Positions 17,278 to 40,097 of a DNA stretch of 64,000 bases are shown piece by piece (the stretch's first letter is position 1; every line of letters begins with the position of its first letter). Position numbers and translations under genes: made by a program. Under the pieces are notes generated by a model. It made no database searches, was not told the origin of the DNA, and saw only the letters and a program-made list of their open reading frames with translations. The stretch is taken from NCBI RefSeq assembly GCF_036688685.1, contig NZ_JAQQPS010000007.1:2013-66012 (forward strand), written 5' to 3'. This stretch comes from Massilia sp. S19_KUP03_FR1 (lineage in GTDB: Bacteria; Pseudomonadota; Gammaproteobacteria; Burkholderiales; Burkholderiaceae_D).

Positions 17278-18180
17278 ATGCAGGCAGCAGGACAGGCAAT
17301 CACGATGGGCAGCGGCCAGTACATGCTGCGCGAACGCCTCGCCGCGTCCAGCTACGGCATTGTCTGGCGCGCCGACGGCCCGACCGGCCCGGTTGCGATC
17401 AAACTTGTCAATGCGGCGCAGATGGCCAGCGCCGACGCCACCGAACACCATGTCTGGACTGCGTCCGCCCAGCGCGAGATTGCCTTCCTGCGCGCGCTGG
17501 CGCCGTGGGATGCACGCCACATCGTGCGCCTGCTCGGCAGCGGCGAGGTCGACGGTTTGCCGGCCATGGCCCTTGAACTGCTCGACGGCGACCTGGCGCG
17601 CCACGACCTGTCACAACTCGATGCCGGCCAGGCGCTGGCCTGGATCGGCCAGCTGAACCAGGCGCTGGCCAAGGTGCACAGTCACGGCTGGCGCTATCTG
17701 GACCTGAAACCGGCGAATATCCTGCTCGACCGGCGCGCCAGCCTGGTCAAACTGGCCGACTTCGGCACCAACCGTGCACTGGCCGACGTTGCCGCCCACA
17801 CCTACGCCGGCACCGCCAGCTGGCAGGCGCCGGAACAGTTTTTCCCGGATCCGCAGCAGCGCTACCGCAGCGACGCGAGAAGCGATTATTTTGCACTGGG
17901 CGCATTGCTGTTTTACCTGGTGTCGGGCGGCCAGCCGCTGCGCTACGGATCGGCGTGCGGCGCCGCATGGCGCGCCCACGGCCGCGCCGGCGCCGTGCAA
18001 CTGCGCGACCAGCACCAGGGCGCCCTGCCGGCTGTCCTGCACGACGATGAAGCCGCGCTGTTCGCGCGGCGCGGCGGCGCGCGCGCGCTGCCACTCCTGC
18101 GCGCCCTGCTTGCCGTCGAACCGGCGCGGCGCCCGCGCCACGCCCTCGACATCAGCCGCGCCCTGGCGAGCGCCGCATGA
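17278..18180 (+). CDS. Ser/Thr protein kinase (Hanks-type)
   Basis: VAIK, HRDLKPANILLD-like (YLDLKPANILLD), DFG and APE motifs. Stop overlaps the next gene (ATGA). Confidence 0.85.
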   Translation: MQAAGQAITMGSGQYMLRERLAASSYGIVWRADGPTGPVAIKLVNAAQMASADATEHHVWTASAQREIAFLRALAPWDARHIVRLLGSGEVDGLPAMALELLDGDLARHDLSQLDAGQALAWIGQLNQALAKVHSHGWRYLDLKPANILLDRRASLVKLADFGTNRALADVAAHTYAGTASWQAPEQFFPDPQQRYRSDARSDYFALGALLFYLVSGGQPLRYGSACGAAWRAHGRAGAVQLRDQHQGALPAVLHDDEAALFARRGGARALPLLRALLAVEPARRPRHALDISRALASAA

Positions 18181-20456
18181 CGCTGCGCCGCGTCGGCATG
18201 GTCGCCGTCGCCGCCTCTGCGCTCGCGTTTCTATGCGCGCTGCAGCTGGTGGCGCTGCTGCGCGCGCCGCCAGCGTTCTATCCAGCCACCATCGAGGTGC
18301 CGCTGCGCGCAGGCGCATCCATCGTCCTCGGCCAGCAGGAACTGGCGGCCCCGGACGCCGAGAGCCGCCACCTGGCCGTGCGGCGCGACGCGTCCGGCGC
18401 CTGGCTGGTCCGCAACGTCAGCGCCGTTTCCGCACTGCGCCTGCTGCGCGGCCGCGCTGAACAGCGCACGGGCGCCACGGCGCTCAGGCAGGGGCAGACA
18501 TTCCAGCTCGGCGCCACCATCTTCAGTGTCGATGGCGCAGGTAGCAGTGACCTCGCCTTCAGCGCAGCCGGCCAGCACTGGCGCTACGACGGCGCCACAC
18601 TCTGGCGTGGCGGCGCGGCGCAGCCCCCCTGTCCTGATAGCCGCTTCGGCGCGCGCGCCCTCGCCGCGTGGAACCGCCTGGCGCCGGTAGCGCTGACGCT
18701 GGCCCGCCCGCTGGTCTTTGGCGGCAACCTCCACTGCGGCAATCGCCTCGGGCTGGGCGGAATCGACGGCGGTGCCGCGCTGGCCAGCCGGGCAGAACAC
18801 GGCATCGTGCTGGCCAGCGCCGTGCAAGCCGCGCTGCTGGTCGACGGCGCGCTACTGGCTGAGACCGAATACAGCCTGGCCGGCGTGACCGGGCTGCTTG
18901 CCGGCCGCACCCGCCTGAGCGTTGCCATCGACGGCGACAGCTTGCACCTGCGTCCGCTCAGTCACGTGGCGCTGTTCATGGCGCCGCAGGCCGAGCTGCC
19001 GGCGCCGCTCGCGTGGCGCTGGCAGCAGCGCGCCGCGTGGGCGCTGCCGCCAGCGGCCGTGGGGCCGGCGGCCTTGCTGTTGCTCGGTGCCCTGGGCGCG
19101 GCAATCTTCAAGGCGCTCGGCGGCAGCGCGGCCTGGACCTGGCGCGTGGCCGGCCTGCTGATCGCCGCCGCCGGTAGCGTCGCGCTCTTTTTGCAGCGCG
19201 CCGGCTACGCGCCCGGCATCGGCATTTCCCTGCTGCTGGCCTGGGCGGCGCTGTGGTATCTGCTGCTCGCGCCTGGCAAACTGCATTTGGTGACGGCTGC
19301 CGCCGTGCTGCTGCTGGCGCTCGGCCTGCTGGCGCAACTGGAACTGGGGCTGGGTGGCGCCGAGTCGTCCTGGCTGCGCCATGTGCAAAAGACCGCGTGC
19401 CTGCTGGCCATCGGCGCCGGTCTCGGTGTGCAACCGCGCCTGTTCCGTCAAGCGCAACGGATGTCGCAGGCGCACCTCGAGTGGCTGCTGGTCGTGCTGG
19501 CCACCATGGCACTCGCGGCACTCCTGCTGCAAGTCGTGTTCGGCGACGAAACCGGTGTGTTCGACATCCAGCCGGTGGAATTCGCCAAGCTGGCCCTGAC
19601 CGCGCTGACCGCCCATTGCCTGGCGCTGGGCATGGGCACGCAAGCGGCGCCCGGCGGCATCCACCGCTGGTTGCGCCTGGGCGCGCCGGCGCTGCTGTTC
19701 ATGGTGCTGCTGGCGCTGGCGCTGGTCGAGGTCGATGATTTTTCGCCCCTGATCCTCCTGCTGGTGTGGAGCACGGCGATGGCCCTGGCCTACGCGCTGG
19801 CCAGCCGCAATGTGGGCCTGGCAGCGCTGGTGGGCGCAGCTGCGTTGATGTGCGTGGGCGGGGTAGCGATGCTGCACAGCGCCGCGCCGCAGCAGGTCGC
19901 CAACTGGCAGTTTTACGGCGACCGTTTCCTGGTCTGGCTCGATCCGGCCACGCACCCGCACACCGGCCAGCAGATGCTCGCCGGCGCACGCGCGATTGGC
20001 GCCGGTGGCTGGTGGGGCAGCGACGGCTTGCTCGGTTTCACCTCGCTGGGCCAGCACGCCGGCGCCGCCATGCGCATCGCGGCCGTGCAGGACGATTTCG
20101 CGCCGGCGTTTTTCCTGAACCGCCATGGCCTGGCCGCGGCGCTCGCGCTGTGGCTCCTGCAAGCCCTGTTCATCGGCGCGCTGCTGCAGGTTGCCGCGCG
20201 CGCGTGGGCGGCCAGCGTGGCCGCGCGCGACTTCCGCCGGGCATCCGTCAACAGGTTCTTCTGCTTTGCCCTGTGCGGCGGCGCCGCCTTCATTCTGGGC
20301 CACCTGCTGCTGTCGTGGGGAACCAACCTGGCCATCTTCCCCATCATGGGCCAGCCGATGTCCTTCCTGTCGGCGGGCGGCTCGCACCTGCTGTTTTTCA
20401 TTTGCCCCCTGCTAGCGGTGGCTAGCTTCAGCGCGCAATCATTCGAGGAGAATTAA
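18177..20456 (+). CDS. FHA-like N-terminal domain fused to SEDS-family (FtsW/RodA/SpoVE) polytopic membrane protein
   Basis: C-terminal region matches SEDS conserved blocks (GAGGWWGSDGLLG...QDDFAPAFF, PIMGQPMSFLSAGGSHLLF). About 10 TM segments. The N-terminal 130 aa is FHA-like. Confidence 0.8.
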   Translation: MTLRRVGMVAVAASALAFLCALQLVALLRAPPAFYPATIEVPLRAGASIVLGQQELAAPDAESRHLAVRRDASGAWLVRNVSAVSALRLLRGRAEQRTGATALRQGQTFQLGATIFSVDGAGSSDLAFSAAGQHWRYDGATLWRGGAAQPPCPDSRFGARALAAWNRLAPVALTLARPLVFGGNLHCGNRLGLGGIDGGAALASRAEHGIVLASAVQAALLVDGALLAETEYSLAGVTGLLAGRTRLSVAIDGDSLHLRPLSHVALFMAPQAELPAPLAWRWQQRAAWALPPAAVGPAALLLLGALGAAIFKALGGSAAWTWRVAGLLIAAAGSVALFLQRAGYAPGIGISLLLAWAALWYLLLAPGKLHLVTAAAVLLLALGLLAQLELGLGGAESSWLRHVQKTACLLAIGAGLGVQPRLFRQAQRMSQAHLEWLLVVLATMALAALLLQVVFGDETGVFDIQPVEFAKLALTALTAHCLALGMGTQAAPGGIHRWLRLGAPALLFMVLLALALVEVDDFSPLILLLVWSTAMALAYALASRNVGLAALVGAAALMCVGGVAMLHSAAPQQVANWQFYGDRFLVWLDPATHPHTGQQMLAGARAIGAGGWWGSDGLLGFTSLGQHAGAAMRIAAVQDDFAPAFFLNRHGLAAALALWLLQALFIGALLQVAARAWAASVAARDFRRASVNRFFCFALCGGAAFILGHLLLSWGTNLAIFPIMGQPMSFLSAGGSHLLFFICPLLAVASFSAQSFEEN

Positions 20457-20458
20457 TC

Positions 20459-21958
20459 ATGCCGGTGTATGTTCAACACGAGATCCTGGGAAAAATCAGC
20501 GATGTCTTCAATGCCGATGCCTTGTGGCAGGCGCCCGGCATGTCCCTGTTTGCACGCCAGCCGCTGCTGCGCGACCTGCTCGAGCGCTCGCCCCGTGAAC
20601 AGCGCGGGCGCGACCCCACCCGCTGCTTCGCGCACGTCACCCTGATGCTGCCGCAGGAAGACGTCGACGACGACCGCCACCTCACGCGCGGTGCGCGTGT
20701 GCGCGACCTGGCCGATTCACTGGCGGCCCTGCACCAGAAGGATTTCGGCGACCTGCTCAAGGGCGATGAGGTGCGCTACGACGTGGTCGGCGCAGAAGCC
20801 CTGGAACCAGGCCAGGTGCACGTCAAATTTGGCCACGCCGTCTACCTGCCCGCGCCCGCCGAAAAGCCGCTATATATGGTCACCGCCTCCACCGACTCGG
20901 CCATCTGGAAAGCCGTCTGCCCGGTGTATCCGCACCAGCGCCTGGCCCTGCTCGGGCCGGATGCGGACGGCGCCAGCCACGCGGTCGCCGACTGGCCGTT
21001 CGGCCTTGATGCCGCGATCCTGCTGATCAACGACGGGCCGGACGGCCAGCTGGAAGTGCAGGTGCGCCCGAAGGATGGCTACGAATGCCAGTTCGATCCG
21101 CTCAGCGGCTATTACACGGTCAAGGCCAGGGGTGCGCCAACAAGGCTGCTGCTGAAGGTGACGCGCACGGCGCCGCGACCGCCAGCGGTGCAGCCGGCGG
21201 CCGCGCCGGCAAAGCCACCCGGCGTCTGGAAAACGCGTGCGCTTGAACCGGCCGAGCAGACCGCGGTGCCGCTGGCACGGGTGCTGGGCGCGCCGAAACT
21301 CGACGAAGCGACCTATGCCCCGATCGCGCAACAGCGGGTCAGCCTGGCGGCGCTGGCACTGCCGCGCCTGTCGCGCTATCGTGACACCGGCGCGACCACG
21401 CTCAATGTGCGGCTCGACCGCCAGCTAGCGATCACGGCCCTTGATGCCGCGATCACCTTTGCGGTCGACGCCGACGACGCCCTGCACGCGATCACAGCGG
21501 CTGGCCGGCAGCGCATCACGGCGCCGGCCAGCTTCACGCCAGTCGATGCGCGCGTCGTCAAACTCGATTGCGTGGCGCCGGCCATGGCTGACCGCTACAG
21601 CGCGCTGCTGCATTTGCCGAACCCGCCCGCGCTGCCGGTCGCCGGTGGCGCACGCCTGGTGTTCGGGCGTGGCGCGCCGATGCTGGCGAGCCTGCGCGTG
21701 CTGGACGGCGCCGGGGCGCTGCGCTCGGACAGCGACGTCATTGAGAACGCCGACCGCCTGGGCCTGTCGCGCAAGGCGTTCAGTTTCGAAGTTGTCGAGG
21801 GCGGCTATCAGGTGACGCGCCTGTCGCCGACCCAGGCCCTGTTCCACCTCGACGCGCAATGTGCTTTCGTCGCCAGCATCGACGACGACCAGCCGTACTT
21901 GCTGCCGCCCGGCCACCACCTGGTCGCCGGCCATTACGTGCTGCGCTTCGACGCTTGA
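20459..21958 (+). CDS. FhaA-like protein (DUF3662-like N-terminal domain plus C-terminal FHA domain)
   Basis: N-terminal RDLAD...GD..V.Y/F pattern as in FhaA. The C-terminal 100 aa has FHA hallmarks (GR....DRLGLSR...EGGYQV..LS). Confidence 0.6.
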   Translation: MPVYVQHEILGKISDVFNADALWQAPGMSLFARQPLLRDLLERSPREQRGRDPTRCFAHVTLMLPQEDVDDDRHLTRGARVRDLADSLAALHQKDFGDLLKGDEVRYDVVGAEALEPGQVHVKFGHAVYLPAPAEKPLYMVTASTDSAIWKAVCPVYPHQRLALLGPDADGASHAVADWPFGLDAAILLINDGPDGQLEVQVRPKDGYECQFDPLSGYYTVKARGAPTRLLLKVTRTAPRPPAVQPAAAPAKPPGVWKTRALEPAEQTAVPLARVLGAPKLDEATYAPIAQQRVSLAALALPRLSRYRDTGATTLNVRLDRQLAITALDAAITFAVDADDALHAITAAGRQRITAPASFTPVDARVVKLDCVAPAMADRYSALLHLPNPPALPVAGGARLVFGRGAPMLASLRVLDGAGALRSDSDVIENADRLGLSRKAFSFEVVEGGYQVTRLSPTQALFHLDAQCAFVASIDDDQPYLLPPGHHLVAGHYVLRFDA

Positions 21959-21963
21959 ACCGC

Positions 21964-22422
21964 ATGTTCTCCGCGCACATTCCAGCGCTCTGGGTCAGCG
22001 CCGCCTGCCTGGCCGGCGCCTTGATCCTGACGCTGATCCTGGCCGCGTTCCTGACGCCGCGCCACTGGTGGCGCCGCGCCAACGCGCGCGCGCTGGCGGT
22101 GCTGGTCGGCGGCACCGCCTTGTTCGGCGCGCTGTTCATGCTGGCCGCGGGCGTCTGGCCACGGCCGGCAACGCCAGTGGCCCTGACTGCCCTGCCCCAG
22201 GTCGTGGTCCCGACCCGCGCCTACCGCGTGTTCGACAACCTGAATTTGCGCGTCGCCAGCGGCACCGGAGCCGCGCGCATCGCGGTCGTCACGAAAGGCA
22301 CCGTGGTCACGACGACCGGTCGTGTCGAGGGTGACTGGTGCGAGGTCACGGCCAGCGTGAACGGGCGCAGCACAACTGGCTGGGCCAGCAGTTTATGGCT
22401 GCGCCGGGGCGACGAACGCTAG
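21964..22422 (+). CDS. Membrane-anchored bacterial SH3 (SH3b) domain protein
   Basis: Two TM helices, then YRVFDNLNLRVASGTGAARIAVVTKGTVVTTTGRVEGDWCEV...GWASSLWL (SH3_3 pattern). Confidence 0.7.
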   Translation: MFSAHIPALWVSAACLAGALILTLILAAFLTPRHWWRRANARALAVLVGGTALFGALFMLAAGVWPRPATPVALTALPQVVVPTRAYRVFDNLNLRVASGTGAARIAVVTKGTVVTTTGRVEGDWCEVTASVNGRSTTGWASSLWLRRGDER

Positions 22423-22445
22423 CGATGGGCGTGCATCCGTGCCAA

Positions 22446-22916
22446 TCACGCGTTGCGCGCGCGGGCGCAGACCATCGGCTGGAACGTCACGCCATTGCGG
22501 CATTGCGCGGCGCCGTCGCAGCGGAAGCCCAGCGCTTCGTAGGCCGGCACGGCATACGGCGATGAATTGACCGTAAAAATCGCGGCTGGCGCCGCTTGCG
22601 CGCAGGCCGCCCGCCACAAGGCGCGCGCCACGCCACGCCGGTGCCAGCGATGATCAACAAACAAGTGAAATACATGGCTGGGCGGCCGCAGTGCGATGTA
22701 GCCGGCCAGCCTACCCTCGATCTCTGCCACGCTGGCAACGTGTCCGCGGTCACGATATGCCCGCAGTGCCGCTTCATCGTTATCACGCAAAAAGGTGGCG
22801 CCCGCTTCCGGTGGCATACCGGGCACGATGAACGCCGTTGCCAGCGTGCGCAGCATGGCGGCCATGGCCGGATAGTCGGCATCCACTGCGGGCCGGATCA
22901 CTATTTTTTTGTCCAT
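22446..22916 (-). CDS. GNAT family N-acetyltransferase
   Basis: Acetyl-CoA-binding motif HRRGVARALW. About 156 aa. Confidence 0.75.
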   Translation of the reverse strand: MDKKIVIRPAVDADYPAMAAMLRTLATAFIVPGMPPEAGATFLRDNDEAALRAYRDRGHVASVAEIEGRLAGYIALRPPSHVFHLFVDHRWHRRGVARALWRAACAQAAPAAIFTVNSSPYAVPAYEALGFRCDGAAQCRNGVTFQPMVCARARNA

Positions 22917-23020
22917 TGTTATTAGGTCACGTTGGGAAAATCACGAAAATCGGCAAGCACAATGTAACAAATAATTGCATTTGTTGACTTGTGACATTAG
23001 TGCCCCGTAGACTTGTTTCC

Positions 23021-24307
23021 ATGCGAAAAGCCAGTCTTACTGCCAGTTTTGCCACCGCCAGCGTCGCCGGCGTTGAGCATGCGCCAGCAGGATTGCCACG
23101 CCTTACCATACCACTGTCGCGCCCGCTACGCCATCCGCGCTACCGGCGCCTGTGGTGCGCCAACCTGGTGTCGAACCTGGGCAGCTGGACCCAAACATTT
23201 GCATCGGCCTGGCTGATCGCCTCGCTGTCACACTCGGCCTCGACCACCACGCTGGTGCAGACCGCCACCTATATTCCCATCTTTCTTTTCGCACTGCTGG
23301 CCGGCGTGGTCGCCGATGGCGTGCACCGTCCCAAATTCCTGTTTTTTTGCAACCTGTTCCAGGCCGCCTGTGCGTGCGTCCTGGCTGCGCTCGTCATTAC
23401 CGGGCACGCCAGCATCGGCCCGGTGCTGGCCGTCACCTTTTGCCTCGGGGTGGGCTCGGCCTTCATGTGGCCGGCCTGGCAGGCAGCACTGTCCGGGCTG
23501 GTGGAGCCGGACGAAGTCGAAGCGGCGGCAACCCTGAACAACCTCAGCTACAACGTCTCGGCCATCCTGGGCCCGGCGCTGGGCGGCATCTTGTTCAGCT
23601 GGATCGGCGCGGGCGCGCTGTTCCTGGTGAACGCGATTTCCTTCGTGGGCTTGCTGTCCGTGTACTGGGCCTGGTGGCGCGAACAGCCGGCCCAGAAGGT
23701 GGTACCGACCCGCTTCATGGCGCGCCTGCGCGACGGCGTGAACCTGGCGCTCGGCTGCGCCCGCTATCGCTGCATCCTGGTCAATGTCTGCACCGTGTTT
23801 TTCGCGACAATTGCCTTCGCCGGCCTGTTGCCGGTATTCGTGCGCGACGTGCTGCACATGAATTCGGGCGTGTTCGGCACGCTGATGGGCAGCCTGGGCG
23901 CAGGGGCCGTCGCGGCCGCCTTTTGCCTGCCGTCGCTGCGCACCCGGGTCGGCAAAACCCGCTTGCTGGTGGGCGCACTGGTGGTCTACGGCATCATGCT
24001 GCTGGGTTTGTCGATGCTGCGCTCGCTGGCGCTGCTGATTCCCCTCATCGTCTGCGGCGGCATGGCCTGGTCGACCATTGTCTCCACTCTCAACGCGGCA
24101 GCACAATTGTCATTTCCGGCGCCAGTGCGGGCGCGCACCTTGTCGATCTACCTGTTCGTCATGGCGGGCGGCTACACGGCCGGCAGCATATTCTGGGGCA
24201 AAATCGCCGATCAGTTCGGCGTCAGCGCCGCGTTTGCCGGCGCCGGCGCCTGCGTTCTGGTGAATGCTGCGATGTTGTTTAAGGGAAAGCGGGAAAATCC
24301 CATCTGA
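23021..24307 (+). CDS. MFS transporter
   Basis: 12 predicted TM helices. MFS signature-like GRR loops. Start uncertain (22991 or 23021). Confidence 0.8.
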   Translation: MRKASLTASFATASVAGVEHAPAGLPRLTIPLSRPLRHPRYRRLWCANLVSNLGSWTQTFASAWLIASLSHSASTTTLVQTATYIPIFLFALLAGVVADGVHRPKFLFFCNLFQAACACVLAALVITGHASIGPVLAVTFCLGVGSAFMWPAWQAALSGLVEPDEVEAAATLNNLSYNVSAILGPALGGILFSWIGAGALFLVNAISFVGLLSVYWAWWREQPAQKVVPTRFMARLRDGVNLALGCARYRCILVNVCTVFFATIAFAGLLPVFVRDVLHMNSGVFGTLMGSLGAGAVAAAFCLPSLRTRVGKTRLLVGALVVYGIMLLGLSMLRSLALLIPLIVCGGMAWSTIVSTLNAAAQLSFPAPVRARTLSIYLFVMAGGYTAGSIFWGKIADQFGVSAAFAGAGACVLVNAAMLFKGKRENPI

Positions 24308-24348
24308 TTCACGCTTTGCTCAGTGCCCATCCGGGGTAAAGTAGCACC

Positions 24349-25311
24349 ATGCCCATCTCCCCGCCTCTTCCGTATCGCATCGACCTTGCCGCCCGCTCCA
24401 GTATTGGCGCCGGTCCCGACGCCCGCGGGGAAAACCAGGATAACTATTTGACCATCGATGCCGACGGCAACGCCTGCTATCTGGTCGGGCAAGTTGCCTG
24501 CCGGCGCCACGTGGCCGGCTGGCCGCGCGGGCACGCGCGCATGGCCGTGCTCGACGGCATGGGTGGCCACGGCCACGGGCGCGAAGCGGCCGAAGCGGTG
24601 GTCGCGGGCCTGTTGTACCTGCCGGCCTGCAGCAGCCTCGCCGTCCTGGAACAGGCGCTCGACGCCATGCATGCCGACCTGCAGCACGCCTTTGCGCGCG
24701 ATGCCGGGCGGCGTCCGGGCACCACCCTGACGCTGCTGGAAATTCCGCCAGGCCAGCAGGCCATGCTCTACCACGTCGGCGATTCGCGCCTGTACGCCGT
24801 GGCGGACAGCACCATTACCCCCTTGACGGTCGACCATGTGCCGGCCACGTCGTTCGCCATGGCTGGCACGCTGGGCGAAGACGACTGGTGGGAGCAAGTA
24901 CACGGTGAACACCGCCCGCAGATTTCCCAGGCATTCATGCTGGGCAACGCGTTCAGCAATCCGGCAAGGTTGGCCGACGCCTTGTTTCCACTGACACCCG
25001 CCAACTTGCCACCGTGGCTGCGCCTGCTGGCCGACCGCCGCGTCCTCGTCCTGCAGCCGCATGTGGCGTATGTGCTGGCCACCGACGGTTTCTGGTCGTG
25101 TCCGCAGGCGCTGAAATGGATGGCGCGCTGGCCGGCGCTGGCGCGGGGCCGCAGCGACGCCAGGGCGATCGTGGCGGCGCTGTTCGACGCACTGGAAAAC
25201 CATCCGCCCGCCGGCCTGCAGCCGGACAATGCCACGGCAGTGGCGCTGCGCCTGCTGCCGGTTGCCGCAGCGGACGAAACGGCGCTGCCGGAACGCCTGG
25301 GCAGCAACTAA
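24349..25311 (+). CDS. PP2C-family Ser/Thr protein phosphatase
   Basis: ENQDN, LDGMGGHGHG, GTTLTLL and VGDSRLY motifs. Confidence 0.85.
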   Translation: MPISPPLPYRIDLAARSSIGAGPDARGENQDNYLTIDADGNACYLVGQVACRRHVAGWPRGHARMAVLDGMGGHGHGREAAEAVVAGLLYLPACSSLAVLEQALDAMHADLQHAFARDAGRRPGTTLTLLEIPPGQQAMLYHVGDSRLYAVADSTITPLTVDHVPATSFAMAGTLGEDDWWEQVHGEHRPQISQAFMLGNAFSNPARLADALFPLTPANLPPWLRLLADRRVLVLQPHVAYVLATDGFWSCPQALKWMARWPALARGRSDARAIVAALFDALENHPPAGLQPDNATAVALRLLPVAAADETALPERLGSN

Positions 25312-25437
25312 CATGCGCAAAAGCAACAATACCAGCGAAACCAGCAAGACAGCGCGCCCGCCACGTGCAAATACAGTTAAGCTGTCTTTGGCTGCACCGT
25401 GCTACCCTGTCCCCTCCCCCGCACTGGCCCGACGTTC

Positions 25438-26958
25438 ATGAACAAGTGTTGCAATCCCGATCATCCGCACTGCACCGTCTGGGTCATGCCCGGCGCGGAC
25501 AGTTGCGTGCACGGGCATGCGCAGCCAGCGGCCGCGGCAATGTCAGCGGCGCCAGCGCCAGTCGCGCTGACGCCGACGCTCGACAATCCTTTTGACATGT
25601 TGACGGCGCTGCGCCAGCGCCGCGACGATGCCCCGGCCGGCATCCATCCGCGCCATCCGGTGGCGCGCCGGCCGCATTTGCGCATCAGCGGTTTCGATCC
25701 GCGCGCAGCCGGCGGGCGCCAGTCGATCAAAATCGACCTGCGTGGTCTGGCGCCCAACACGGCGACCCAGATGCACATGACGCTCGCGTCCGACCTGTTT
25801 GCCCACGGCAGCGAGCGCCACACGTTTGCGCACAGCGTCGACGGTGACTGGCGCCCCGCGTTCGTGGAATTTTCTTCGCGCGGCCTGGAACATGGCCAGT
25901 ACCGCATCGATGTCGAACTGCGCAGCGAAGAACCGGGCGAGCGTGGCCCGCGCGCAGCGCGCACCTGGGTGTGTACGCTGATGATCCTGGTGCCGCGCCT
26001 GGATGCGTCGCTCACCGATATCCACCAGACCTTCCTGGCCACGCACAAAAACGTGCGCGTGATGGCCGACGACGCCGGCATTGCCCGCGTCAACGCGCCG
26101 GGCGGCGCCAGCATGAATATCGACGTCACCGCACGCAATGCCTCGATCGCGCACCTGAATCTCGATACGCCCAGCGGCAAGGTCGACCACAGCATCGGCA
26201 CCATCGCCTGGGACGAAGACCTGATCGAAATCGCTACGCGCCGCAACGAGCCGCATGCGTTCGCGGCCAGCGCCGCCAGCCTGGTCGACGCTGCGCCGGA
26301 CCACGGTGCGCCGCGCCACGTGCGCCTGTTCGCGCTCGATGAATGCATCCTGGGCCGCTGGGAGAGCGCGGCGCCGAAGGCCGACGTGCTGCTGGCCCAC
26401 TACGGTGAGAATGGCCAGGACCAGGCCGGCCTCACGCGCCGCCTGTCGGCCCGCCATGCCGTCATCCGGCGCGGTTCGCGTGGCTATGAAATCGAAGACG
26501 TCTCGCGCTACGGCATCCTGCTCGACGGCGTCTGGCCGGGCAAGCACCAGCCGATTCCGCTGCGCCTGGGCATGCGCATCGAACTGTCGGCCAGCATCAA
26601 GGGCATCGTCGTCATGGAGGTGGGCGCCCTGCTGCCGAACGGCGTCATCCTGCACCGCATCGACCAGGGCGCGGGCGCCGAGTGCCTGTACCTGATGGAT
26701 CCGGAACGCCACCCCGGCTTTCCGGTGCCAGATTATCCATGCGCGCCGCGCGCCTGCGCGATGCCGGTGCTGTTCCACCGCGATGGCGGCTTCTGGCACC
26801 TTGACGCCAACACCGGACGCGAAACATCCCTCGGTCCGGCCACGCTGGTCGACCGCCTGACACGCTTCGGGCGCCACGTGCGCTTTGCGGGCAAGCCCTA
26901 CCCGGAAGACCAGTCGGTGCGCACAACCGAACGCCGGCGCGCACCAGCACACTCGTAA
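25438..26958 (+). CDS. FHA-domain protein (C-terminal FHA)
   Basis: RRLSARHAVIRRGSRGYEIEDVSRYGILLDG has FHA hallmarks. The Cys/His-rich N-terminus is unusual. Confidence 0.65.
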   Translation: MNKCCNPDHPHCTVWVMPGADSCVHGHAQPAAAAMSAAPAPVALTPTLDNPFDMLTALRQRRDDAPAGIHPRHPVARRPHLRISGFDPRAAGGRQSIKIDLRGLAPNTATQMHMTLASDLFAHGSERHTFAHSVDGDWRPAFVEFSSRGLEHGQYRIDVELRSEEPGERGPRAARTWVCTLMILVPRLDASLTDIHQTFLATHKNVRVMADDAGIARVNAPGGASMNIDVTARNASIAHLNLDTPSGKVDHSIGTIAWDEDLIEIATRRNEPHAFAASAASLVDAAPDHGAPRHVRLFALDECILGRWESAAPKADVLLAHYGENGQDQAGLTRRLSARHAVIRRGSRGYEIEDVSRYGILLDGVWPGKHQPIPLRLGMRIELSASIKGIVVMEVGALLPNGVILHRIDQGAGAECLYLMDPERHPGFPVPDYPCAPRACAMPVLFHRDGGFWHLDANTGRETSLGPATLVDRLTRFGRHVRFAGKPYPEDQSVRTTERRRAPAHS

Positions 26959-27593: not shown

Positions 27594-27602
27594 GAGAGTG
27601 AC

Positions 27603-28741: not shown

Positions 28742-31009
28742 TTATTGTTGGTTAATTGATATTGACGACTCTAGCATGCGCTCCGAATGCATCAACTCGC
28801 GTACGACACGAAATCCGACGATATCGTTCGCCATTGTGGCGGAAAAGCCATTTCGTAATGCAGAGCGCAGATAGCGCGGGTGATACAGCCAGCAGCCGCC
28901 ACGCAAAATATGGCGGCTCTGGTCGCCGCCGTTGCGCCAGGCACTGCCGTCCGTCGGCGCGCCGTCGTAGGTATCGTGCACCACATCCTGGACCCATTCC
29001 CAGACGTTGCCGTGCATGTCGAGCAGGCCCCACGGGTTCGGTGCGAACGCCCCCACCGGCGTGGTGCCGCGCCTGAACACGCCGGTGGCGCCGCCATTGT
29101 ACGAAAAGCTGGCATCGTAATTGGCCTGGCCGGCATGGATCGTGTCACCGGTGGAAAACGCCGTGCGCGTGCCGGCGCGGCAGGCGTATTCCCATTCCGC
29201 CTCGGTGGGCAGGCGGTAGCGCTGGCCGGTCTGCTTGCACAACCAGACCAGGTATAGCTGGACGTCATTCCACGACACGCCAACCACGGGGTGCGTATCG
29301 GTTTGCGTGAAGCCGGGTGCTTCCCAGTCGACGTCGCCGTGGTGGCGCCAGCCGGTGGCGCTGGCAAAGCGGCGCCACTCGCCTACCGTGACGGGCGTGC
29401 GGCCCATGGCCAGCGGCCGCTCGATGCCGACCCAGTGCTGCGGCGTTTCGCGCGCGAGCCAGATGCGCTGCGCGCCGGCCGCCAAGGCGATCGCGCGCTC
29501 GTGCTCGGGCGAACCCATGTGGAAACGCCCGGTCGCGATCAGCACCAGTTCCGGGGCAGCTGCGCCATCGGCGAATGTGTCGCGCAAGATGCCTTGCGGG
29601 TCCGCCACCGGGCTGTCAGGCGACGGCAGCAGCTGCGCCAGCTCGGCCTGGTTGCGCGCGGCCGCCTCGGCGCGCGCGCGCTGTTGTTCGGACAGGTAGG
29701 CGGCGGCCGCTTTGGCCTGGTTGGCCTTGCGCTGGGCTTCGTCCTGCTCGGCTTGCGCCTTGGCCGCATCCAGCGCGCGCCGTTCGCGCAGCTGCTCGCG
29801 CAGGATCACCCGGCGTGCGCGCCTGGCCGTCTCGGCCTCGCGCTGGGCGATCTGCTCCTGCTCCTTGCGCTGGCGTACCACCAGCGCCCGCGCCAGCACG
29901 GCCTGCTCTTCCGCCTTTCTACGGGCCACCTGTTGGGCCGCCTGTTTTTCGGCACGGACCTGGGCCGCCACCTGGCGCGCGACCAGGTCGTCGGCCGATG
30001 GTGGACGCGGACCACGCAGGCGCGCCAGCAATTGCGTCACGCTGGGCTGGCGCAGCTTGGGATCGAAGGCAAAGCCCTCCTGCAGCGCGCCCCACTGGGC
30101 CGGGGTAAGCGAGCCCGGCGACTGGTCCGGCAAATGCGCCAGTTCGGCGCGGCCGGTGAGCATCTGGTAAATCATGACGGCCACCGCATACACGTCCAGC
30201 GTGCGCACCGGCACCATGGCGGCGTTATTTGATTCCGGCGCGCGGTACACCAAGGTACCCGAATCGGCCGGCGCCTCGCGGCTGGCCAACTGCTCCGGCT
30301 CGGCGCCACGCGAGCGCGCCGCGATGCCGAAGTCGAGCAGCTTGACGTCACCGCCCTTCGTGACGAACACATTGGCCGGTTTGATGTCGCGGTGGACCAG
30401 GTGCTGCTTTTCCCACGCATAATCGAGCGCCACGCCGACCGGCTCCAGCAGGTTCAACACGCGTTCGAGCGGCAGCGCGCCGGCATGCGACATCAGGCCG
30501 GCCAGGTCTTCGCCGTCGAGGTATTCCATGATGATGAAATAACTCATCGTCGCCGGATCCTGGGCCCAGTCGTAGACACGCACGATGTGTTCGTGCGCCA
30601 GCGCGCGCGCGCGCGTGGCTTCTTCGACCAGCAAGCGGGCGAAGTGCGGGCTGTGGGTCAGCTGGGGCGGGATGATCTTCAATGCCACCACGGCGCTGTG
30701 ACCGAGTTCGGCGTGGGTGGCCAGGTCAAGGGCCTGCCACACCTGGCCCATGCCGCCCAGCGCCACCATGCGCTCGAGCCGGTAGCGGCGGTTTGCGGGC
30801 CCCACTTCCTGGCCGGTCATCAGGCCGATCTCGGTGCCCGACCCTGGCGCGCTGCCAGGCCCCGACCCCGCCGCGCCGGGCGTCCGGCCCGGCGGTGCGT
30901 ACTCCGCATCGAGAATGGCGTTCTTGCGGCGCTCGAACTCGTCCCTGCTGAGCAGGCCGTCGTCGTGCAGCGCGCGCAGTTCGCGGATCTTGTCGATGGC
31001 GGTGTGCAT
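28742..31009 (-). CDS. Multidomain SHOCT - Ser/Thr kinase - coiled coil - FGE-sulfatase (SUMF1-like) protein
   Basis: N-terminal SHOCT-like (LRALHDDGLLSRDEFERRKNAIL). Kinase motifs HRDIKPANVFV, DFGIA and APE. Long Ala/Glu/Arg-rich coiled coil. C-terminal FGE motifs (VSWNDVQLYLVWL, RLPTEAEWEYACRAG, HGNVWEWVQD). Confidence 0.85.
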   Translation of the reverse strand: MHTAIDKIRELRALHDDGLLSRDEFERRKNAILDAEYAPPGRTPGAAGSGPGSAPGSGTEIGLMTGQEVGPANRRYRLERMVALGGMGQVWQALDLATHAELGHSAVVALKIIPPQLTHSPHFARLLVEEATRARALAHEHIVRVYDWAQDPATMSYFIIMEYLDGEDLAGLMSHAGALPLERVLNLLEPVGVALDYAWEKQHLVHRDIKPANVFVTKGGDVKLLDFGIAARSRGAEPEQLASREAPADSGTLVYRAPESNNAAMVPVRTLDVYAVAVMIYQMLTGRAELAHLPDQSPGSLTPAQWGALQEGFAFDPKLRQPSVTQLLARLRGPRPPSADDLVARQVAAQVRAEKQAAQQVARRKAEEQAVLARALVVRQRKEQEQIAQREAETARRARRVILREQLRERRALDAAKAQAEQDEAQRKANQAKAAAAYLSEQQRARAEAAARNQAELAQLLPSPDSPVADPQGILRDTFADGAAAPELVLIATGRFHMGSPEHERAIALAAGAQRIWLARETPQHWVGIERPLAMGRTPVTVGEWRRFASATGWRHHGDVDWEAPGFTQTDTHPVVGVSWNDVQLYLVWLCKQTGQRYRLPTEAEWEYACRAGTRTAFSTGDTIHAGQANYDASFSYNGGATGVFRRGTTPVGAFAPNPWGLLDMHGNVWEWVQDVVHDTYDGAPTDGSAWRNGGDQSRHILRGGCWLYHPRYLRSALRNGFSATMANDIVGFRVVRELMHSERMLESSISINQQ

Positions 31010-31016
31010 CAAGAGG

Positions 31017-32984
31017 CTAGGTTCCCAACGGCGCGCCACAGACGCCGCAAACCTGTTCGTGCGCCAACCCAGGGTGACCGTGGGCGCAGCGCCGCACCAG
31101 GCCTGCCGCCAGCTGCGCCTGCGACGTCAACGCCGTCTTGTTGACGTCGTTCTGGATGGTCAGCAGGTCGAACTGGTGACGCCGGTCCTTGTCCACTTCC
31201 GCATCGCGGCGGGCGCCTGCTTCCCGCATGGCTTCCTGCGCCATGCGCTGCGCTTCCTGCGGCGTGACGCCGGCCTGCGCTGCCGCCACCTGGGCCAGTG
31301 CGGCCAGTTGGCTGGCATCCATACCGGCGTGGACACGTGTTTTCAGGTAGTCGGCCAGCACAGCGGCATTCGGTGCCGGCGCCATGGCCAGCTTGGTTGC
31401 ATCGTCTACCGCGCTCATGGCCTGCATGCGCGCCAGGTCGTGGCTGTGGACCGCATCCTGGCTGTCGCGCGCCATGGCGTGGCGGCGCTCGTCGCCGTCG
31501 AGCGCGATGTCGCTGGCGATGCGTTGCGAGCGGGCGTCCGCTTCGATCGTGCGCAGCAGCTTTTCGTGCTGGGCCAGGCTGTCGCGCTGACCGCCGCTGC
31601 GGCGCATGTCGCCCAGCTGCTGCGCGGTGGTTTCGTCCTCAACCGATGCCGCGCGTTCGGTCTCGCGCAGGCGCGCCTGGTGGGCGGCCGCGAGCAACGC
31701 GCGCCGGCCCTGGTATGCATCCTCCTCGATGTCATGCTCACGGCGCGCGGCGGCCACTTCCATCTCGCGCAGGCGCGCCAGCTCGGCGCGCTGGTGCGCG
31801 GCGTCGGCAATCCCGCCGGCCTGCTCGATCTTGTTCCTGATTTGCTGCTGCAGCACCTGGTGCGCGAAACGCTGCTGCGCCAGCTGGCGCGACTGCAGTT
31901 CGTCCTGGTGCGCCAGCGCCAGTTCGGCGTGCATATGGACTTCGGCCAGTTTACGCAAGTGCTGCCACTGCGTTTTCTCGTCGCCGCGCGCCAGGCTTTT
32001 CTGTGCCATCTCGTGTTCGAGTTCAGCCAGCACTTCCCCCGCGCCACGCTCGACCGCCTGTTTTTTGGTGGCCGAATCCATGATGCGCGCATACAGTTCG
32101 ATCTCGCGCGCGCGCATGGCCTGGCTGCGCTCTGCGCTTTGCAGCGTCAGTTCGGCCTGCTCGATGGACGCATCGGCGCGCAGTTCCTGGCGGCGCTTGT
32201 CCAGGCGCGCGTCCTGCTCCGCGCGGCGGATGCGCTGCCATTCTTCGTCGTCGTACAGCTGTTCGAGGTTGCGCGCGTGCTCCACCTGCACCTGACGCTC
32301 GTCGGCGGCCAGCCACAGGCTGGCGACCTTGTCGCGGTTGGCGTCGAATTTATCGTGGCGCAGTTCGATCGTGTCGACCTGGGTGACGGCCAGGCCGAAC
32401 TGGGCCAGGCGCAGTTTCAGGGCGGCCTGCAGGCGCTCGTCGAGTTGCGGGCGCAGCGCGCGGTTGGCGGCCATCTCGCGCAGCGAACGGGCGCCCACGA
32501 ATTCGGCCGCCAGCTGGCGCACGGACGGCGCCAGCAATTCGCGCAGCTGGGCGCTGGCCACCGTGCCCGGCGCGGTCATGAAGTGGCGCGCAAAGGCGGC
32601 GACGTTGTCGACCTGCACACTGATCGTCATGCGCGCGTCAACCAGTAAATGTTCGGAGGTGGCCAGCCCGCCAAAGCTGAACGACACCGGCAGCGCGCTG
32701 GTGCGGGTGATCAGGATCTCGGCATGGCCGTCGCGCAGCAGGTGATTGAGGCGCGTAAAAAAACCTTCGATTTCGTACTCGCCCTGAGGCACCTCGGTGG
32801 CCTGGTCGCCCTGCAGGATGTAGGCACGGGTGGTGGCCGGCACGCGCAGGGTTTTGACGAAGATGCCCGACAAGGCCGACACGCCAAAAAACACGGCCAG
32901 GTCGTCCGGGCCGGCGATCCAGCGGTTGTCCACCAGGACCGGGCTACCTCGTGCTGCGCCTGCATTTGCCATCTCGACCATCAT
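31017..32984 (-). CDS. SPFH/band-7 (flotillin/YqiK-like) protein with long coiled coil and C-terminal Cys/His zinc-ribbon-like tail
   Basis: SPFH core (ILITRTSALPVSF...LLVDARMTISVQV...FGLAVTQVDTIEL). About 350 aa of coiled coil. C-terminal CAHGHPGLAHEQVCGVC. Start chosen at the ATG behind the GAGGGAG SD; the ORF is open to 33155. Confidence 0.75.
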   Translation of the reverse strand: MMVEMANAGAARGSPVLVDNRWIAGPDDLAVFFGVSALSGIFVKTLRVPATTRAYILQGDQATEVPQGEYEIEGFFTRLNHLLRDGHAEILITRTSALPVSFSFGGLATSEHLLVDARMTISVQVDNVAAFARHFMTAPGTVASAQLRELLAPSVRQLAAEFVGARSLREMAANRALRPQLDERLQAALKLRLAQFGLAVTQVDTIELRHDKFDANRDKVASLWLAADERQVQVEHARNLEQLYDDEEWQRIRRAEQDARLDKRRQELRADASIEQAELTLQSAERSQAMRAREIELYARIMDSATKKQAVERGAGEVLAELEHEMAQKSLARGDEKTQWQHLRKLAEVHMHAELALAHQDELQSRQLAQQRFAHQVLQQQIRNKIEQAGGIADAAHQRAELARLREMEVAAARREHDIEEDAYQGRRALLAAAHQARLRETERAASVEDETTAQQLGDMRRSGGQRDSLAQHEKLLRTIEADARSQRIASDIALDGDERRHAMARDSQDAVHSHDLARMQAMSAVDDATKLAMAPAPNAAVLADYLKTRVHAGMDASQLAALAQVAAAQAGVTPQEAQRMAQEAMREAGARRDAEVDKDRRHQFDLLTIQNDVNKTALTSQAQLAAGLVRRCAHGHPGLAHEQVCGVCGAPLGT

Positions 32985-33090
32985 TGACTCCCTCATTTCA
33001 AGCTGCGTCACCCTGCCGTTGCGGGCAGTACACGATTCTAGCAGGGGCGCCGCCTCAACACCCCCGGCACACCCGTCATTTTGTTTCTTT

Positions 33091-34071
33091 TCAGAAAATT
33101 CCGATTTGCGCGACACAGGCCAGGCTGGCGCCACGGGCGCGCACCGCATCGGCAAACTCTGGCGGCAGCATGGTCTGCCAGGCTTGCGGCAGCAAAATCC
33201 GGTCGCCCGGCGCGGCTTCGGCCGCGATCAGGGCGCATTTCGGCACTATCCCTTCGACCGTGTCGACCTGGCCCGTGTGCCAGCCATGCGAGGTACCCGA
33301 GGCGATGATGCGGCCGCGCGCCACATAGTCGCGCCCGCGCGCCAGCCGGTCGGCCAGCACCAGCGCCAGTTCGTACGAATTGCCCTGGAAGCGCTGCTGG
33401 CCAAACCTGATGGTGGTGCGCCAGCGCCCGGGGACGCAGCGGTCGAAATCGCGCGCCCCCAGCAGCGCCTGGCGCACTGCCAGCTGGCGCGTGACATCCA
33501 GGCCCGGGACGGTCACGGCGTCGTCGTCAAGGTCGCCCGCCAGCAGCGGATACACGCTGACCTCGACCCAGCACAGGCTGTCGTTGATGCCGCCGCTGTG
33601 CAGCGGGAACCAGGCGCGCGCGCTCGACACCACGTGCGCCGCATCCGGCTGGCCGGTCAGCGCGCCCAGGTGCGCCATGCCGCCTGCGCCGCCGAGCAAG
33701 GCGGGCGGGTCGGCGTCGATGGTGTGGCCGTCGATACGGCCCAGCTGCCACTGGTCGGACCAACCGTTGGCGCACGGCTCGTTAAGGTGCACCAGGCCGC
33801 GCACCATCCGGTCGGCCAGCACGGCGGCGAGTTCCCAGTCACGCGTGCCGGGGTCGATGTCGATGCTCAGCACGACCTGATCGCGGCTGTCGATGCGCGG
33901 CTCGGTGTGGCGTGCCAGGCGCACCACCTGCTGCATGCGCTCGGCCAGCCCCGGCACGCCGCTGCACTTGACGTCGGCACGGCCGGCGCGCGGGCGCCGC
34001 GTCGCCGTGACGGTGGCAAAGCTGCCGTTGGCCAGCAGGCAGCGGCAGGCGGCACGATCGGGACAGTTCAT
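33091..34071 (-). CDS. Lon/S16-like Ser-Lys protease domain protein with internal duplication
   Basis: GNSYELALVLADRLARG (Ser motif) ... IIASGTSHGWHTGQVDTVEGIVPKCALIAAEAAPGDRILLP (Lys motif) resemble the Lon C-terminal domain. An earlier half-repeat DWELAAVLADRMVRGL. ATG overlaps the upstream stop (ATGA). Confidence 0.55.
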   Translation of the reverse strand: MNCPDRAACRCLLANGSFATVTATRRPRAGRADVKCSGVPGLAERMQQVVRLARHTEPRIDSRDQVVLSIDIDPGTRDWELAAVLADRMVRGLVHLNEPCANGWSDQWQLGRIDGHTIDADPPALLGGAGGMAHLGALTGQPDAAHVVSSARAWFPLHSGGINDSLCWVEVSVYPLLAGDLDDDAVTVPGLDVTRQLAVRQALLGARDFDRCVPGRWRTTIRFGQQRFQGNSYELALVLADRLARGRDYVARGRIIASGTSHGWHTGQVDTVEGIVPKCALIAAEAAPGDRILLPQAWQTMLPPEFADAVRARGASLACVAQIGIF

Positions 34072-39800: not shown

Positions 39801-40097
39801 GGCGGCCGCGTACACGCCCTCGACCGCGCCCACGGGTCCGGCCGTCACCGACAGATGGCGCGCGTGACCGGCGATGACGAACGCGCCGGCGAGCGCACCG
39901 AGGACGCTGGCGGCGGCGATCCATTCAGCGGGACGTGGCGCCCGCAGCCGCGCCAGCCTGAAGCGCGGCGCACTGCCCTGCAGCGCCGGCGCGGTGTCGG
40001 CGCGGCGGGCGCCATGGCGCAGGTTGCGCGCGCGCCGCCCCGCGGTCCGGCTGGCGCGCCACGCTTCGAACACTGTCCTCGATCCCCGCATGTGCAT
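36852..40097 (-). CDS. Large membrane-anchored penicillin-binding-protein-like transpeptidase (1081 aa) with about 650-aa N-terminal domain of unknown function
   Basis: N-terminal TM helix. C-terminal transpeptidase motifs in the correct order: SxxK (SSFK), SxN (SLN) and KTG (KTGT). Confidence 0.75.
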   Translation of the reverse strand: MHMRGSRTVFEAWRASRTAGRRARNLRHGARRADTAPALQGSAPRFRLARLRAPRPAEWIAAASVLGALAGAFVIAGHARHLSVTAGPVGAVEGVYAAAAFHATLPGAAFTVAAMPGITLEQRGAAALLIASNMRSEAPLRIDLCSQMADSATGRLLPLRLGYQFSDVAAWVARNASGSTSVTPRNVVLAAPGALTPRVEVSGVAKAARLRWEGVAGVENVHWIGDAGAGRIVSGAAASVPLGRDGWLLWTTGGQTAALRLQRRASASCAAAGELQVQLLRPAAALAGRALVMAYGAVTDTAWLPAGRYQVPVVAAPALEDQALFAQLVAGGLLRLGPDGLIMLAPRDLAAWRAAPGPARAAALAGWEHTALDPAALKRLERLYHRADGDFVRAQVELFNSERRLLAWRTRPQALAGTWQASVGGAPATVAQTMPAAAARLFAQLPQGWDAWRRIQDWPGSGPARLTYTLAQPAQGTEILRLIVLGGVGSVAGARLLASEPACTGRACPAADAAQELRLGLLPGATSVRLDVAPMQTLAAPGDAAYRHIGLAGGKLAWQSMAARPTVARASLAPVTLVDRNGAALWRDGAPSAAASAAGLAPLLGYRADQANSIAGMLGRVGDGGAHAATLTLDLALQAASQGALDCIGMRRGRWDGSHCTGGMAAPDGRHAGMVILDTETGDVLAAAGAGTGQVDAANWAEVRDFDRLDPARSPLRLPALQHDGGAHRSPGSSFKVISALGLELAAQRDPQLDALMNGIPLAEIDRLARSRGFAFQTDAPAYPWDPAVRQARITNYREQLAGRRAQDGRLGMAQALTWSLNTWFAWTGELSDRSLFGRGAGGAPDLAGLEPAALESVRPIVAMAHRLGFERQLRLDGGLLPDDFNWSAWDALQTSAAHIDPIHSRHELRQMAIGLRMQATPLQMALAAAAVGQGRIPAPRLLLALDGRPAVAADAPATGVRLDRIRAGMKGVVDVGTAAHAFGAPELALVRRGLSGKTGTAPTGPASGSDGATATVWFTGWLEPGSLPGQRHRLGFATFVSHSEASGGDHAAPVVAAVLRAMLQNQEKKGKSGSDGRLVP

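Follow-up and report, generated by a model that had tools for sequence, protein, structure and literature searches.

Pairs formed by a SEDS-family protein and a class B penicillin-binding protein (bPBP) are core wall-building enzymes and major antibiotic targets, and their mode of activation is a matter of current research. Phospho-control via FHA adaptors is established in Actinobacteria and Firmicutes. In proteobacteria, the regulatory pathway of the type VI secretion system (T6SS) is, to our knowledge, the only known system comprising a kinase, a PP2C phosphatase and an FHA protein. No description was found of a proteobacterial SEDS–bPBP pair under phospho-control via FHA adaptors, and full-text literature searches aimed at the system presented here returned no description of it. 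This system is encoded by Massilia sp. S19_KUP03_FR1, on a 64-kb stretch of contig NZ_JAQQPS010000007.1 (positions 2,013 to 66,012 of the forward strand), which is hereafter called the window and numbered from its first letter.

An original prediction had described, at 17278–26958, a module of eight genes in the style of the actinobacterial cell-wall signalling loci. All eight were recovered at these coordinates by open reading frame (ORF) listing and by Pfam and NCBIfam scans, and the identities given to the SH3b, PP2C, GNAT and MFS proteins agree with Pfam. Six of the genes (those of the kinase, the SEDS protein, p499, the SH3b protein, PP2C and p506) form the core, but the gene list had passed over a putative cognate PBP, here called PBP1081, and a second kinase, both encoded at 28742–40097. 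The two convergent operons (17278–26958, plus strand; 40097–28742, minus strand) constitute one system, and its full extent is about 17278–40097, approximately double that first described. According to the reading we prefer, whose probability we place only a little above even, the locus would encode an accessory, very divergent SEDS–bPBP peptidoglycan synthase pair under cytoplasmic, reversible Ser/Thr phosphorylation. The functional steps of this reading are drawn from sequence, predicted structure and synteny.

The SEDS protein and its putative partner

The 759-aa SEDS protein is annotated in the source strain as a member of the FtsW/RodA/SpoVE family. It comprises a transmembrane (TM) helix, a two-lobed FHA-fold domain, three extra TM helices and a 10-TM SEDS core. 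The match to PF01098 reaches 64.6 bits against a cut-off of 26.4 and is restricted to aa 430–745, and the scores obtained with the NCBIfam equivalog models are about one sixth of their cut-offs (58.7 vs 336.7 for RodA; 55 vs 337.5 for FtsW). When E. coli RodA (K-12 record) is aligned to aa 367–555 and 580–742 of the protein, its residues E114, K117, D159 and D262 correspond to E468, K471, D521 and D640, all of which are invariant in 19 homologues. The FtsW equivalent of D640 and of RodA D262 is D297, a putative catalytic residue (PMC8765783). The HTD motif of canonical SEDS proteins reads QDD in the Massilia protein. Judged by these features, the protein is an extremely divergent outlier of the family in which the catalytic-type Asp is kept; the loss of this residue, which had been named as evidence against the original prediction, was therefore not observed. 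Most Massilia orthologues carry, after EE(N/I), a Ser/Thr-rich cytoplasmic tail (e.g., QSCRSMSNTKC) that overlaps the start of the p499 gene (L003, L010 and others). This tail is absent from the window copy and from the Duganella copies, and it is possibly a lineage-specific phospho-acceptor.

The N-terminal domain of the SEDS protein was found to belong to the FHA fold, and the FHA-like domains originally assigned to this protein, to p499 and to p506 all hold as folds, in p499 as a probable one. The Pfam FHA model has no match on the window SEDS protein even at E<=10. Ahead of the SEDS core there are hydrophobic helices at aa 9–27, 293–311, 321–339 and 347–365, and RodA TM1 corresponds to aa 370–390. 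The FHA fold sits between the first two of these helices, and three TM helices precede SEDS TM1. Since SEDS TM1 starts in the cytoplasm, the parity of the helices places the FHA-fold domain in the periplasm. The conservation of the N-terminal helix in distant relatives and the invariance of C152 and C187 (78/78 sequences) are both consistent with this placement, and we consider it probable that the domain is periplasmic. It appears unlikely to read phosphothreonine: among 78 sequences, the residue after G52, which corresponds to the Arg of the GR motif, is Q 34 times and R 30 times, and Glu62 of the window protein aligns to the phosphate-binding Ser of p506. If the periplasmic location is correct, the SEDS-fused domain cannot read the cytoplasmic kinase. 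An hhalign comparison of this domain with the PBP found no relation.

PBP1081 has a TM helix at aa 59–77, followed by a periplasmic module of about 550 aa without any recognised family and then by the transpeptidase domain. Its only Pfam match is PF00905, at aa 907–1060. The SxxK (S733/K736), SxN (820–822) and KTGT (998–1001) motifs are invariant in 20 homologues. A profile of the family gives weak matches to MrdA and SpoVD, in the transpeptidase part only, and the single sequence searched against the PDB gave nothing useful. The gene lies 16 kb from the SEDS gene, in the convergent operon, and its homologues have the same taxon range as those of the SEDS protein, at similar levels of identity. 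From these comparisons, and from the position of PBP genes in distant relatives, we infer that PBP1081 is the cognate partner of the SEDS protein.

The pairing is also seen far from Massilia. When a profile of the SEDS N-domain was searched exhaustively, 184 clusters (50% identity) were recovered. With few exceptions, their full-length members measure 750–1050 aa and carry the domain at the N-terminus, and those tested keep the divergent SEDS core; the cadherin-repeat giants that appeared in the representative search were repeat-driven noise. Six distant metagenomic neighbourhoods were examined (L086, L088, L090, L091, L092 and the P0387 context). In all of them except L092, a PBP gene is found directly upstream of the SEDS gene, often overlapping it, and these PBPs (870–1142 aa) are 23–32% identical to PBP1081. 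L091 (GC 0.70) has one co-directional operon of o225-like, o352-like (both named after genes of the second operon; Table 1), PBP, SEDS and p499 genes; the p499 homologue is full-length and comes directly after the SEDS gene (hhalign 99.7%, E 1.2e-25). In L090 (GC 0.315), a protein matching aa 95–157 of p499 (tblastn E 1.6e-6) precedes the PBP–SEDS pair, in L092 the o406-, o225- and o357-like genes are divergent beside the SEDS gene, and in the P0387 context a Pkinase gene stands beside the pair. The ancestral core is thus the PBP, the SEDS protein and p499, with some of the second-operon genes that lack a family match. In the Oxalobacteraceae form, this core is split into two convergent operons, and the kinase, PP2C, p506 and SH3b set has been added.

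Other genes were also noted in these neighbourhoods. Caspase-like Peptidase_C14 genes lie beside distant PBP–SEDS pairs (L091:16467–17528; the P0387 context), and one such context also encodes an FtsH-like AAA/M41 protein with a hint of nSTAND, an SLT/LysM lytic transglycosylase and a kinase. The Peptidase_C14 neighbours hint at a link to conflict or cell-death signalling. Two L091 proteins of 579 and 690 aa were considered as p506 or SPFH counterparts and show no detectable relation, and a 1567-aa multi-FHA protein (P0503) was ruled out as a neighbour in L088.

Conservation, signalling proteins and gene layout

To compare related loci, one genome per species was scanned. A relative of the SEDS protein is encoded in 249 of these genomes, and the best 80 of the 249 loci were analysed. 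By tblastn of the window proteins, the genes of the kinase, SEDS protein, p499, SH3b protein, PP2C and p506 have the same order and strand in 70 of the 80 loci. Among the remaining ten, nine start or end too near the cluster to hold six genes, and one, from a metagenome-assembled genome (MAG; L040), is without PP2C. The best 80 loci all belong to the Oxalobacteraceae (Massilia/Telluria, Duganella, Rugamonas, Zemynaea and MAGs, one of them labelled Janthinobacterium), and the locus is syntenic across genera at 50–60% identity. The clustering of the six core genes is not due to chance. A check for conservation in related betaproteobacteria had been suggested together with the claim that clusters of this kind are not standard in Burkholderiales. 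This colinearity answers it within the Oxalobacteraceae and qualifies the claim, given that the group of Massilia, Duganella and Rugamonas has the cluster as a conserved feature and that the second operon is found in Janthinobacterium as well. The GNAT and MFS genes do interrupt the cluster in this strain, as had been noted. However, GNAT is missing between SH3b and PP2C in 38 of the 70 complete loci, MFS in 48, and both in 35; these genes are optional later insertions that lie outside the core.

The first genes of the cluster are tightly packed. The TGA stop of the kinase gene overlaps the ATG of the SEDS gene by 4 nt (ATGA, 18177–18180), just as originally reported, and the gaps from SEDS to p499 and from p499 to SH3b are only 2 and 5 nt. 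This overlap and these gaps point to translational coupling and count in favour of the preferred reading. The GC content across the cluster (0.65–0.73) is host-like. Promoter and terminator scans gave sites no commoner than chance.

The kinase matches the Pkinase model with 93.4 bits. Its residues K42, E67, D142, N147 and D161 are invariant in 78 sequences, and T179 of the activation loop is kept in 77 of the 78 orthologues. It is a non-RD kinase, in which an invariant Y-L-D replaces H-R-D. No TM or hydrophobic segment was seen in either kinase of the system, and the PknB_PASTA model matches only the kinase core of the first one (67 bits vs a cut-off of 450), without PASTA. The PP2C protein passes the PP2C_2 cut-off of 24 bits marginally and matches the Stp1/IreP model at 5e-13; D69, D145, D246 and D293-N294 are invariant in 73 sequences, and there is no TM segment. 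The SH3b protein has TM helices at aa 11–29 and 43–61 with an Arg-rich loop between them and a C-terminal SH3_3 domain, and it probably faces the periplasm.

The 499-aa protein, p499, begins with a very conserved region of 128 aa; two beta domains follow, and a Pro/Ala linker leads to a probable FHA fold at the C-terminus (approximately aa 395–499). Sequence searches say little about it: no relevant Pfam match was found in 34 orthologues, there was no NCBIfam match and the window copy had no match at E<=10. The AlphaFold2 (AF2) model, built from 43 homologues, has a mean pLDDT of 66, with aa 1–128 and 244–289 below 50, and contains beta-rich domains at 130–243, 290–400 and 400–499. When this model was compared with the PDB by Foldseek, 31 of the 33 top matches were FHA domains (E 6e-3 to 8e-2, mostly with probability 0.99–1.0), including those of APLF, YscD-type proteins, DgcB, FhaA and GarA. 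The Foldseek output does not give the aligned region of the model, and it is the invariance of G403-R404 and S437-R438 in 78 sequences that leads us to place the FHA fold at the C-terminus. While GR and SR are kept, the FHA ligand His is replaced by Ala or Phe. The DUF3662-like N-domain that had been attributed to this protein could not be substantiated: none of 34 orthologues matched PF12401 at E<=1, and the PDB search with a profile of aa 1–135 retrieved no FhaA chain at E<=10. The likeness of its RDLAD...GD.VRY stretch to the FhaA N-domain is a by-eye impression that none of the searches supported. Nowhere in the cluster is conservation higher than in the first 128 aa (20459–20842), where column identity averages 87% over 25 orthologues; their pLDDT is nonetheless below 50, and they may fold only on a partner.

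In the second FHA protein, p506, the N-terminus resembles a Cys/His zinc ribbon; after a middle domain come a canonical FHA domain (approximately aa 290–395) and a C-terminal domain. PF00498 matches 20 of 32 orthologues (best 3e-7) and does not match the window copy at E<=10. The phosphothreonine ligands G306-R307, S337 and H340 are invariant in 73 sequences, and so are C4, H9, C12, C23 and H27, which agrees with the Cys/His-rich N-terminus originally described. Profile and phmmer searches of the PDB with p499 or p506 gave nothing useful, and hhalign found no relation between the two whole proteins.

Table 1. Genes and domains of the locus, in window coordinates.
Feature	Position	Strand	Evidence
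Kinase, Hanks-type, soluble, non-RD, 300 aa	17278..18180	+	Pkinase 2e-26
SEDS protein, 759 aa	18177..20456	+	PF01098 1e-17
SEDS N-terminal FHA-fold domain (aa 30-285), predicted periplasmic, degenerate phosphothreonine-binding residues	18264..19031	+	
p499, 499 aa, cytoplasmic adaptor-like	20459..21958	+	FHA fold by AF2 + Foldseek
SH3b protein, membrane-anchored	21964..22422	+	SH3_3 7e-10
GNAT acetyltransferase, optional insert	22446..22916	-	Acetyltransf_10 4e-28
MFS_3 transporter, optional insert	23021..24307	+	MFS_3 5e-101
PP2C-type Ser/Thr phosphatase, soluble, 320 aa	24349..25311	+	PP2C_2 26.3 bits
p506, 506 aa, zinc-ribbon-like + FHA	25438..26958	+	PF00498 in 20/32 orthologues
Second Ser/Thr kinase (kinase-FGE)	28742..31039	-	Pkinase 6e-31, FGE-sulfatase 4e-57
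SPFH/Band-7 protein, coiled coil + C-terminal zinc ribbon	31017..33155	-	Band_7 1e-6
o352	33091 to ~34149	-	no Pfam or PADLOC match
o357	34068-35141	-	no Pfam or PADLOC match
o225	35054-35731	-	no Pfam or PADLOC match
o406	35590-36810	-	no Pfam or PADLOC match
PBP1081, 1081 aa, class-B-like	36852..40097	-	Transpeptidase 7.6e-13

The second operon has seven genes on the minus strand, in the order PBP1081, o406, o225, o357, o352, SPFH/zinc-ribbon and kinase-FGE, with a GNAT gene next in this strain. Duganella sp. CF517 and a Janthinobacterium strain possess it as well, and the order of o406, o225, o357 and o352 is the same in Duganella and Janthinobacterium. The contig coordinates of Duganella sp. 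CF517 show it convergent on the end of p506, with a gap of 3.9 kb. The kinase-FGE gene is found 1.5–4.1 kb downstream of p506, in convergent orientation, in 18 of the 31 loci with enough flank. Its product is composed of SHOCT, kinase, coiled-coil and FGE-sulfatase domains. According to a preprint atlas of Ser/Thr kinases, those of the "Proteo1" group carry FGE-sulfatase or DUF4384 domains. The SPFH gene is conserved adjoining the kinase-FGE gene, and its translation probably begins farther downstream than the ORF does. The C-terminus of o352 (GNSYELALVLA...GRIIASG...VPK...ILLP) looks Lon-protease-like by eye; a three-sequence profile found no such match in the PDB.

Several observations were made in the flanking DNA. 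Between a metallophosphoesterase gene (8910–10088, minus strand) and the kinase, the segment 10100–16000 has a GC content of 0.52–0.57 vs about 0.67, and related genomes have only about 0.8–1 kb in this place. It holds an ankyrin-repeat ORF (13168–13800) and several ORFs without a family match, and was probably inserted recently. At 16057–17207, immediately ahead of the kinase, there are two overlapping ORFs on opposite strands; the minus one (16686–17207) has a weak InsA-type zinc-ribbon match (1.2e-4), and it may be an insertion sequence remnant at the edge of the low-GC insertion. Gp49/HigB-like and HTH genes, a pair typical of toxin-antitoxin modules, lie at 27189–28040, between the convergent operons, and among 81 loci their tblastn match is found only in the contig of this strain. 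Farther away, tandem paralogous DUF1565/right-handed beta-helix proteins of 469 and 475 aa are encoded at 3714–5123 and 5324–6751 (minus strand), and a second GC dip (0.54) is found at 50001–52000, far from the locus.

Proposed mechanism and rival explanations

The preferred reading can be broken down into a series of steps. The SEDS core would polymerise a lipid-linked glycan and PBP1081 would cross-link it, as suggested by the active-site residues and by the adjacency of PBP and SEDS genes in the relatives. The soluble non-RD kinase, and probably kinase-FGE as well, would phosphorylate Thr residues on itself or on cytoplasmic partners, which is consistent with the nearly invariant T179. The FHA domains of p499 and p506, with their invariant GR and S(R) ligands, would bind these phosphorylated residues and either recruit the synthase or gate it, p499 being the candidate partner that travels with the SEDS–PBP pair across distant lineages. 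PP2C, in which the catalytic Asp residues are invariant, would reset the switch. Topology and the degenerate phosphothreonine site suggest that the SEDS-fused FHA fold and the SH3b protein would contact the PBP module or the sacculus instead of phosphopeptides.

Several observations weigh against this reading. The segment "GAQRWLDLG" of the second extracellular loop (ECL2) of RodA, which includes the Arg-Trp motif, is deleted from the SEDS protein, and the tyrosine of SYGG is replaced by Ala733 in an invariant S732-A733-G734-G735. W105 of Bacillus subtilis RodA, the equivalent Trp of ECL2, was reportedly found by Meeske et al. in 2016 to be required for function. In E. coli FtsW, the W138A variant is dominant-negative and non-functional, and Y379A is non-functional as well (PMC8765783). 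The deletion in ECL2 and the presence of Ala733 mean that neither polymerase activity nor lipid II specificity is assured. In the PDB, no solved SEDS structure was matched by phmmer or by the family profile, and Pfam found no pedestal/PBP dimerisation domain (PF03717) in PBP1081. The SPFH protein, the FGE-sulfatase domain and the unfamiliar proteins of the second operon are atypical of wall synthesis. In L086, L088, L090 and L091, neither a kinase nor a PP2C was detected by Pfam within 10 kb, and phospho-control would therefore be lineage-specific or exerted in trans. The periplasmic placement of the SEDS-fused FHA fold derives from parity and positive-inside arguments, the charge bias of the loops being by itself weak and mildly supportive, and the action of the kinase on this particular synthase is something that we infer.

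A broader version of the preferred reading is put forward more tentatively, as a possibility to which we give less than even chances. In this version, the locus would be the Oxalobacteraceae form of a third, widespread class of SEDS–bPBP machine, with a defining triad that joins a giant PBP to a SEDS protein bearing an extracytoplasmic FHA fold and to a cytoplasmic FHA adaptor of the p499 family. The FHA fold would act on a non-phospho ligand, and the machine would be phospho-switched for wall repair, stress remodelling or a developmental wall, not for growth or division. The contexts in which the SEDS N-domain family is found range from 31% to 73% GC.

The extreme divergence from RodA and FtsW, with neither the Trp of ECL2 nor the Tyr of SYGG kept, would also suit a neofunctionalised SEDS/PBP pair, acting as a sensor of envelope damage or of an invader, as a repair machine or as the builder of another polymer, within a stress, defence or programmed-death module. 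This explanation, which we regard as rather unlikely, would account for a second operon with SPFH, kinase-FGE-sulfatase and four unfamiliar proteins, for the Peptidase_C14 genes and the FtsH-like AAA/nSTAND protease that adjoin the distant loci, and for the toxin-antitoxin pair and low-GC island attracted to the locus of this strain. However, the vertical, syntenic conservation across genera at 50–60% identity is unlike that of mobile defence islands, the matches to PADLOC-DB 2.0 are limited to generic kinase models and one weak PP2C model, and the SEDS and PBP keep invariant catalytic-type residues that a pure sensor need not keep.

The distant SEDS–PBP–p499 loci without a nearby kinase or PP2C bear on still another explanation, in which the kinase, PP2C and p506 would be a general signalling set with other targets that merely flanks an accessory SEDS–PBP–p499 module. 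The optional inserts that part PP2C and p506 from the first four genes, as well as the L040 locus without PP2C, fit this idea. We nonetheless consider it improbable, because the kinase stop overlaps the SEDS start, the order and strand of the genes are kept in 70 of the 80 loci, the p499 FHA fold with its intact phosphate ligands implies an input from a kinase, and a Pkinase gene stands beside the pair in the independent P0387 context. Horizontal acquisition of an orthologue of the actinobacterial fhaA-fhaB-pstP-rodA-pbpA-pknA-pknB locus is very improbable: DUF3662 was not detected, the kinases have neither TM nor PASTA and the PP2C has no TM, the RodA equivalog score is 58.7 vs 336.7, the gene order differs and the PBP is in a separate operon, the GC content of 0.65–0.73 is that of the host and the closest relatives of every gene are in Oxalobacteraceae. 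A T6SS threonine-phosphorylation arm (PpkA/PppA/Fha), which the trio of kinase, PP2C and FHA might suggest and which the original prediction had itself raised as an objection, can practically be discounted, since Pfam scans of 46 ORFs along the window, and of the neighbourhoods of related loci, detected no T6SS family.

The significance of the preferred reading lies in several points. The locus is a compact and conserved Gram-negative case that brings together the genes of a kinase, a phosphatase, two readers and both enzymes, and the p499 adaptor family accompanies the enzyme pair into very distant lineages. Models of the active site are put to the test by a SEDS protein in which the catalytic Asp is present but residues considered necessary in FtsW and RodA are missing, and the FHA fold is possibly used here extracytoplasmically. 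Massilia, Duganella and Janthinobacterium are culturable, so these predictions are directly testable.

Comparison with known systems

The closest parts list is that of the actinobacterial fhaA-fhaB-pstP-rodA-pbpA-pknA-pknB locus of Mycobacterium and Corynebacterium, in which, as in Massilia, two kinases, a PP2C, two FHA proteins, a SEDS protein and a class-B-type PBP are brought together. Moreover, p499 would share with FhaA a layout of N-domain, disordered linker and C-terminal FHA. The likeness to the mycobacterial locus that was originally pointed out stands, therefore, for the components (kinase, PP2C, two FHA proteins, SEDS), but it does not extend to orthology, which is not detectable, or to gene order, which differs. 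In contrast to the actinobacterial proteins, the Massilia kinases are soluble, without TM or PASTA, and one of them has an FGE-sulfatase domain; the PP2C lacks a TM, no DUF3662 was detected, an SH3b protein is added and the host is Gram-negative. The Massilia SEDS protein carries an extra TM helix, the FHA-fold domain and three more TM helices, and the gene of the 1081-aa PBP belongs to another, convergent operon that also includes SPFH and four unfamiliar genes. The Massilia locus resembles the actinobacterial module in its logic, and it is an independent assembly and not a member of that group.

With the canonical pairs RodA–PBP2, FtsW–FtsI and SpoVE–SpoVD, the Massilia pair shares a SEDS core of 10 TM helices in which E114, K117, D159 and D262 have equivalents, the SxxK, SxN and KTG motifs of PBP1081, and genes that are adjacent or overlapping in the relatives. 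As with SpoVE–SpoVD, the pair would be additional to the housekeeping ones, RodA and FtsW presumably being present in Massilia. On the other hand, the scores fall far below the RodA and FtsW equivalog cut-offs, the Arg-Trp of ECL2 is deleted, SYGG has become SAGG and HTD has become QDD, there is an N-terminal extension of about 365 aa, and an unassigned module of about 550 aa replaces the recognisable pedestal domain of canonical PBPs. The FHA domains of FhaA, GarA, Rv1747 and the YscD/EssC-type proteins are cytoplasmic and read phosphothreonine, whereas the copy fused to the SEDS protein is predicted to be extracytoplasmic and has lost the phosphate ligands. Finally, the T6SS regulators PpkA–PppA–Fha1 are likewise a proteobacterial trio of kinase, PP2C and FHA; in Massilia, however, this trio has no T6SS genes around it, the kinase lacks the TM and vWA of PpkA, and the output would be the SEDS/PBP pair.

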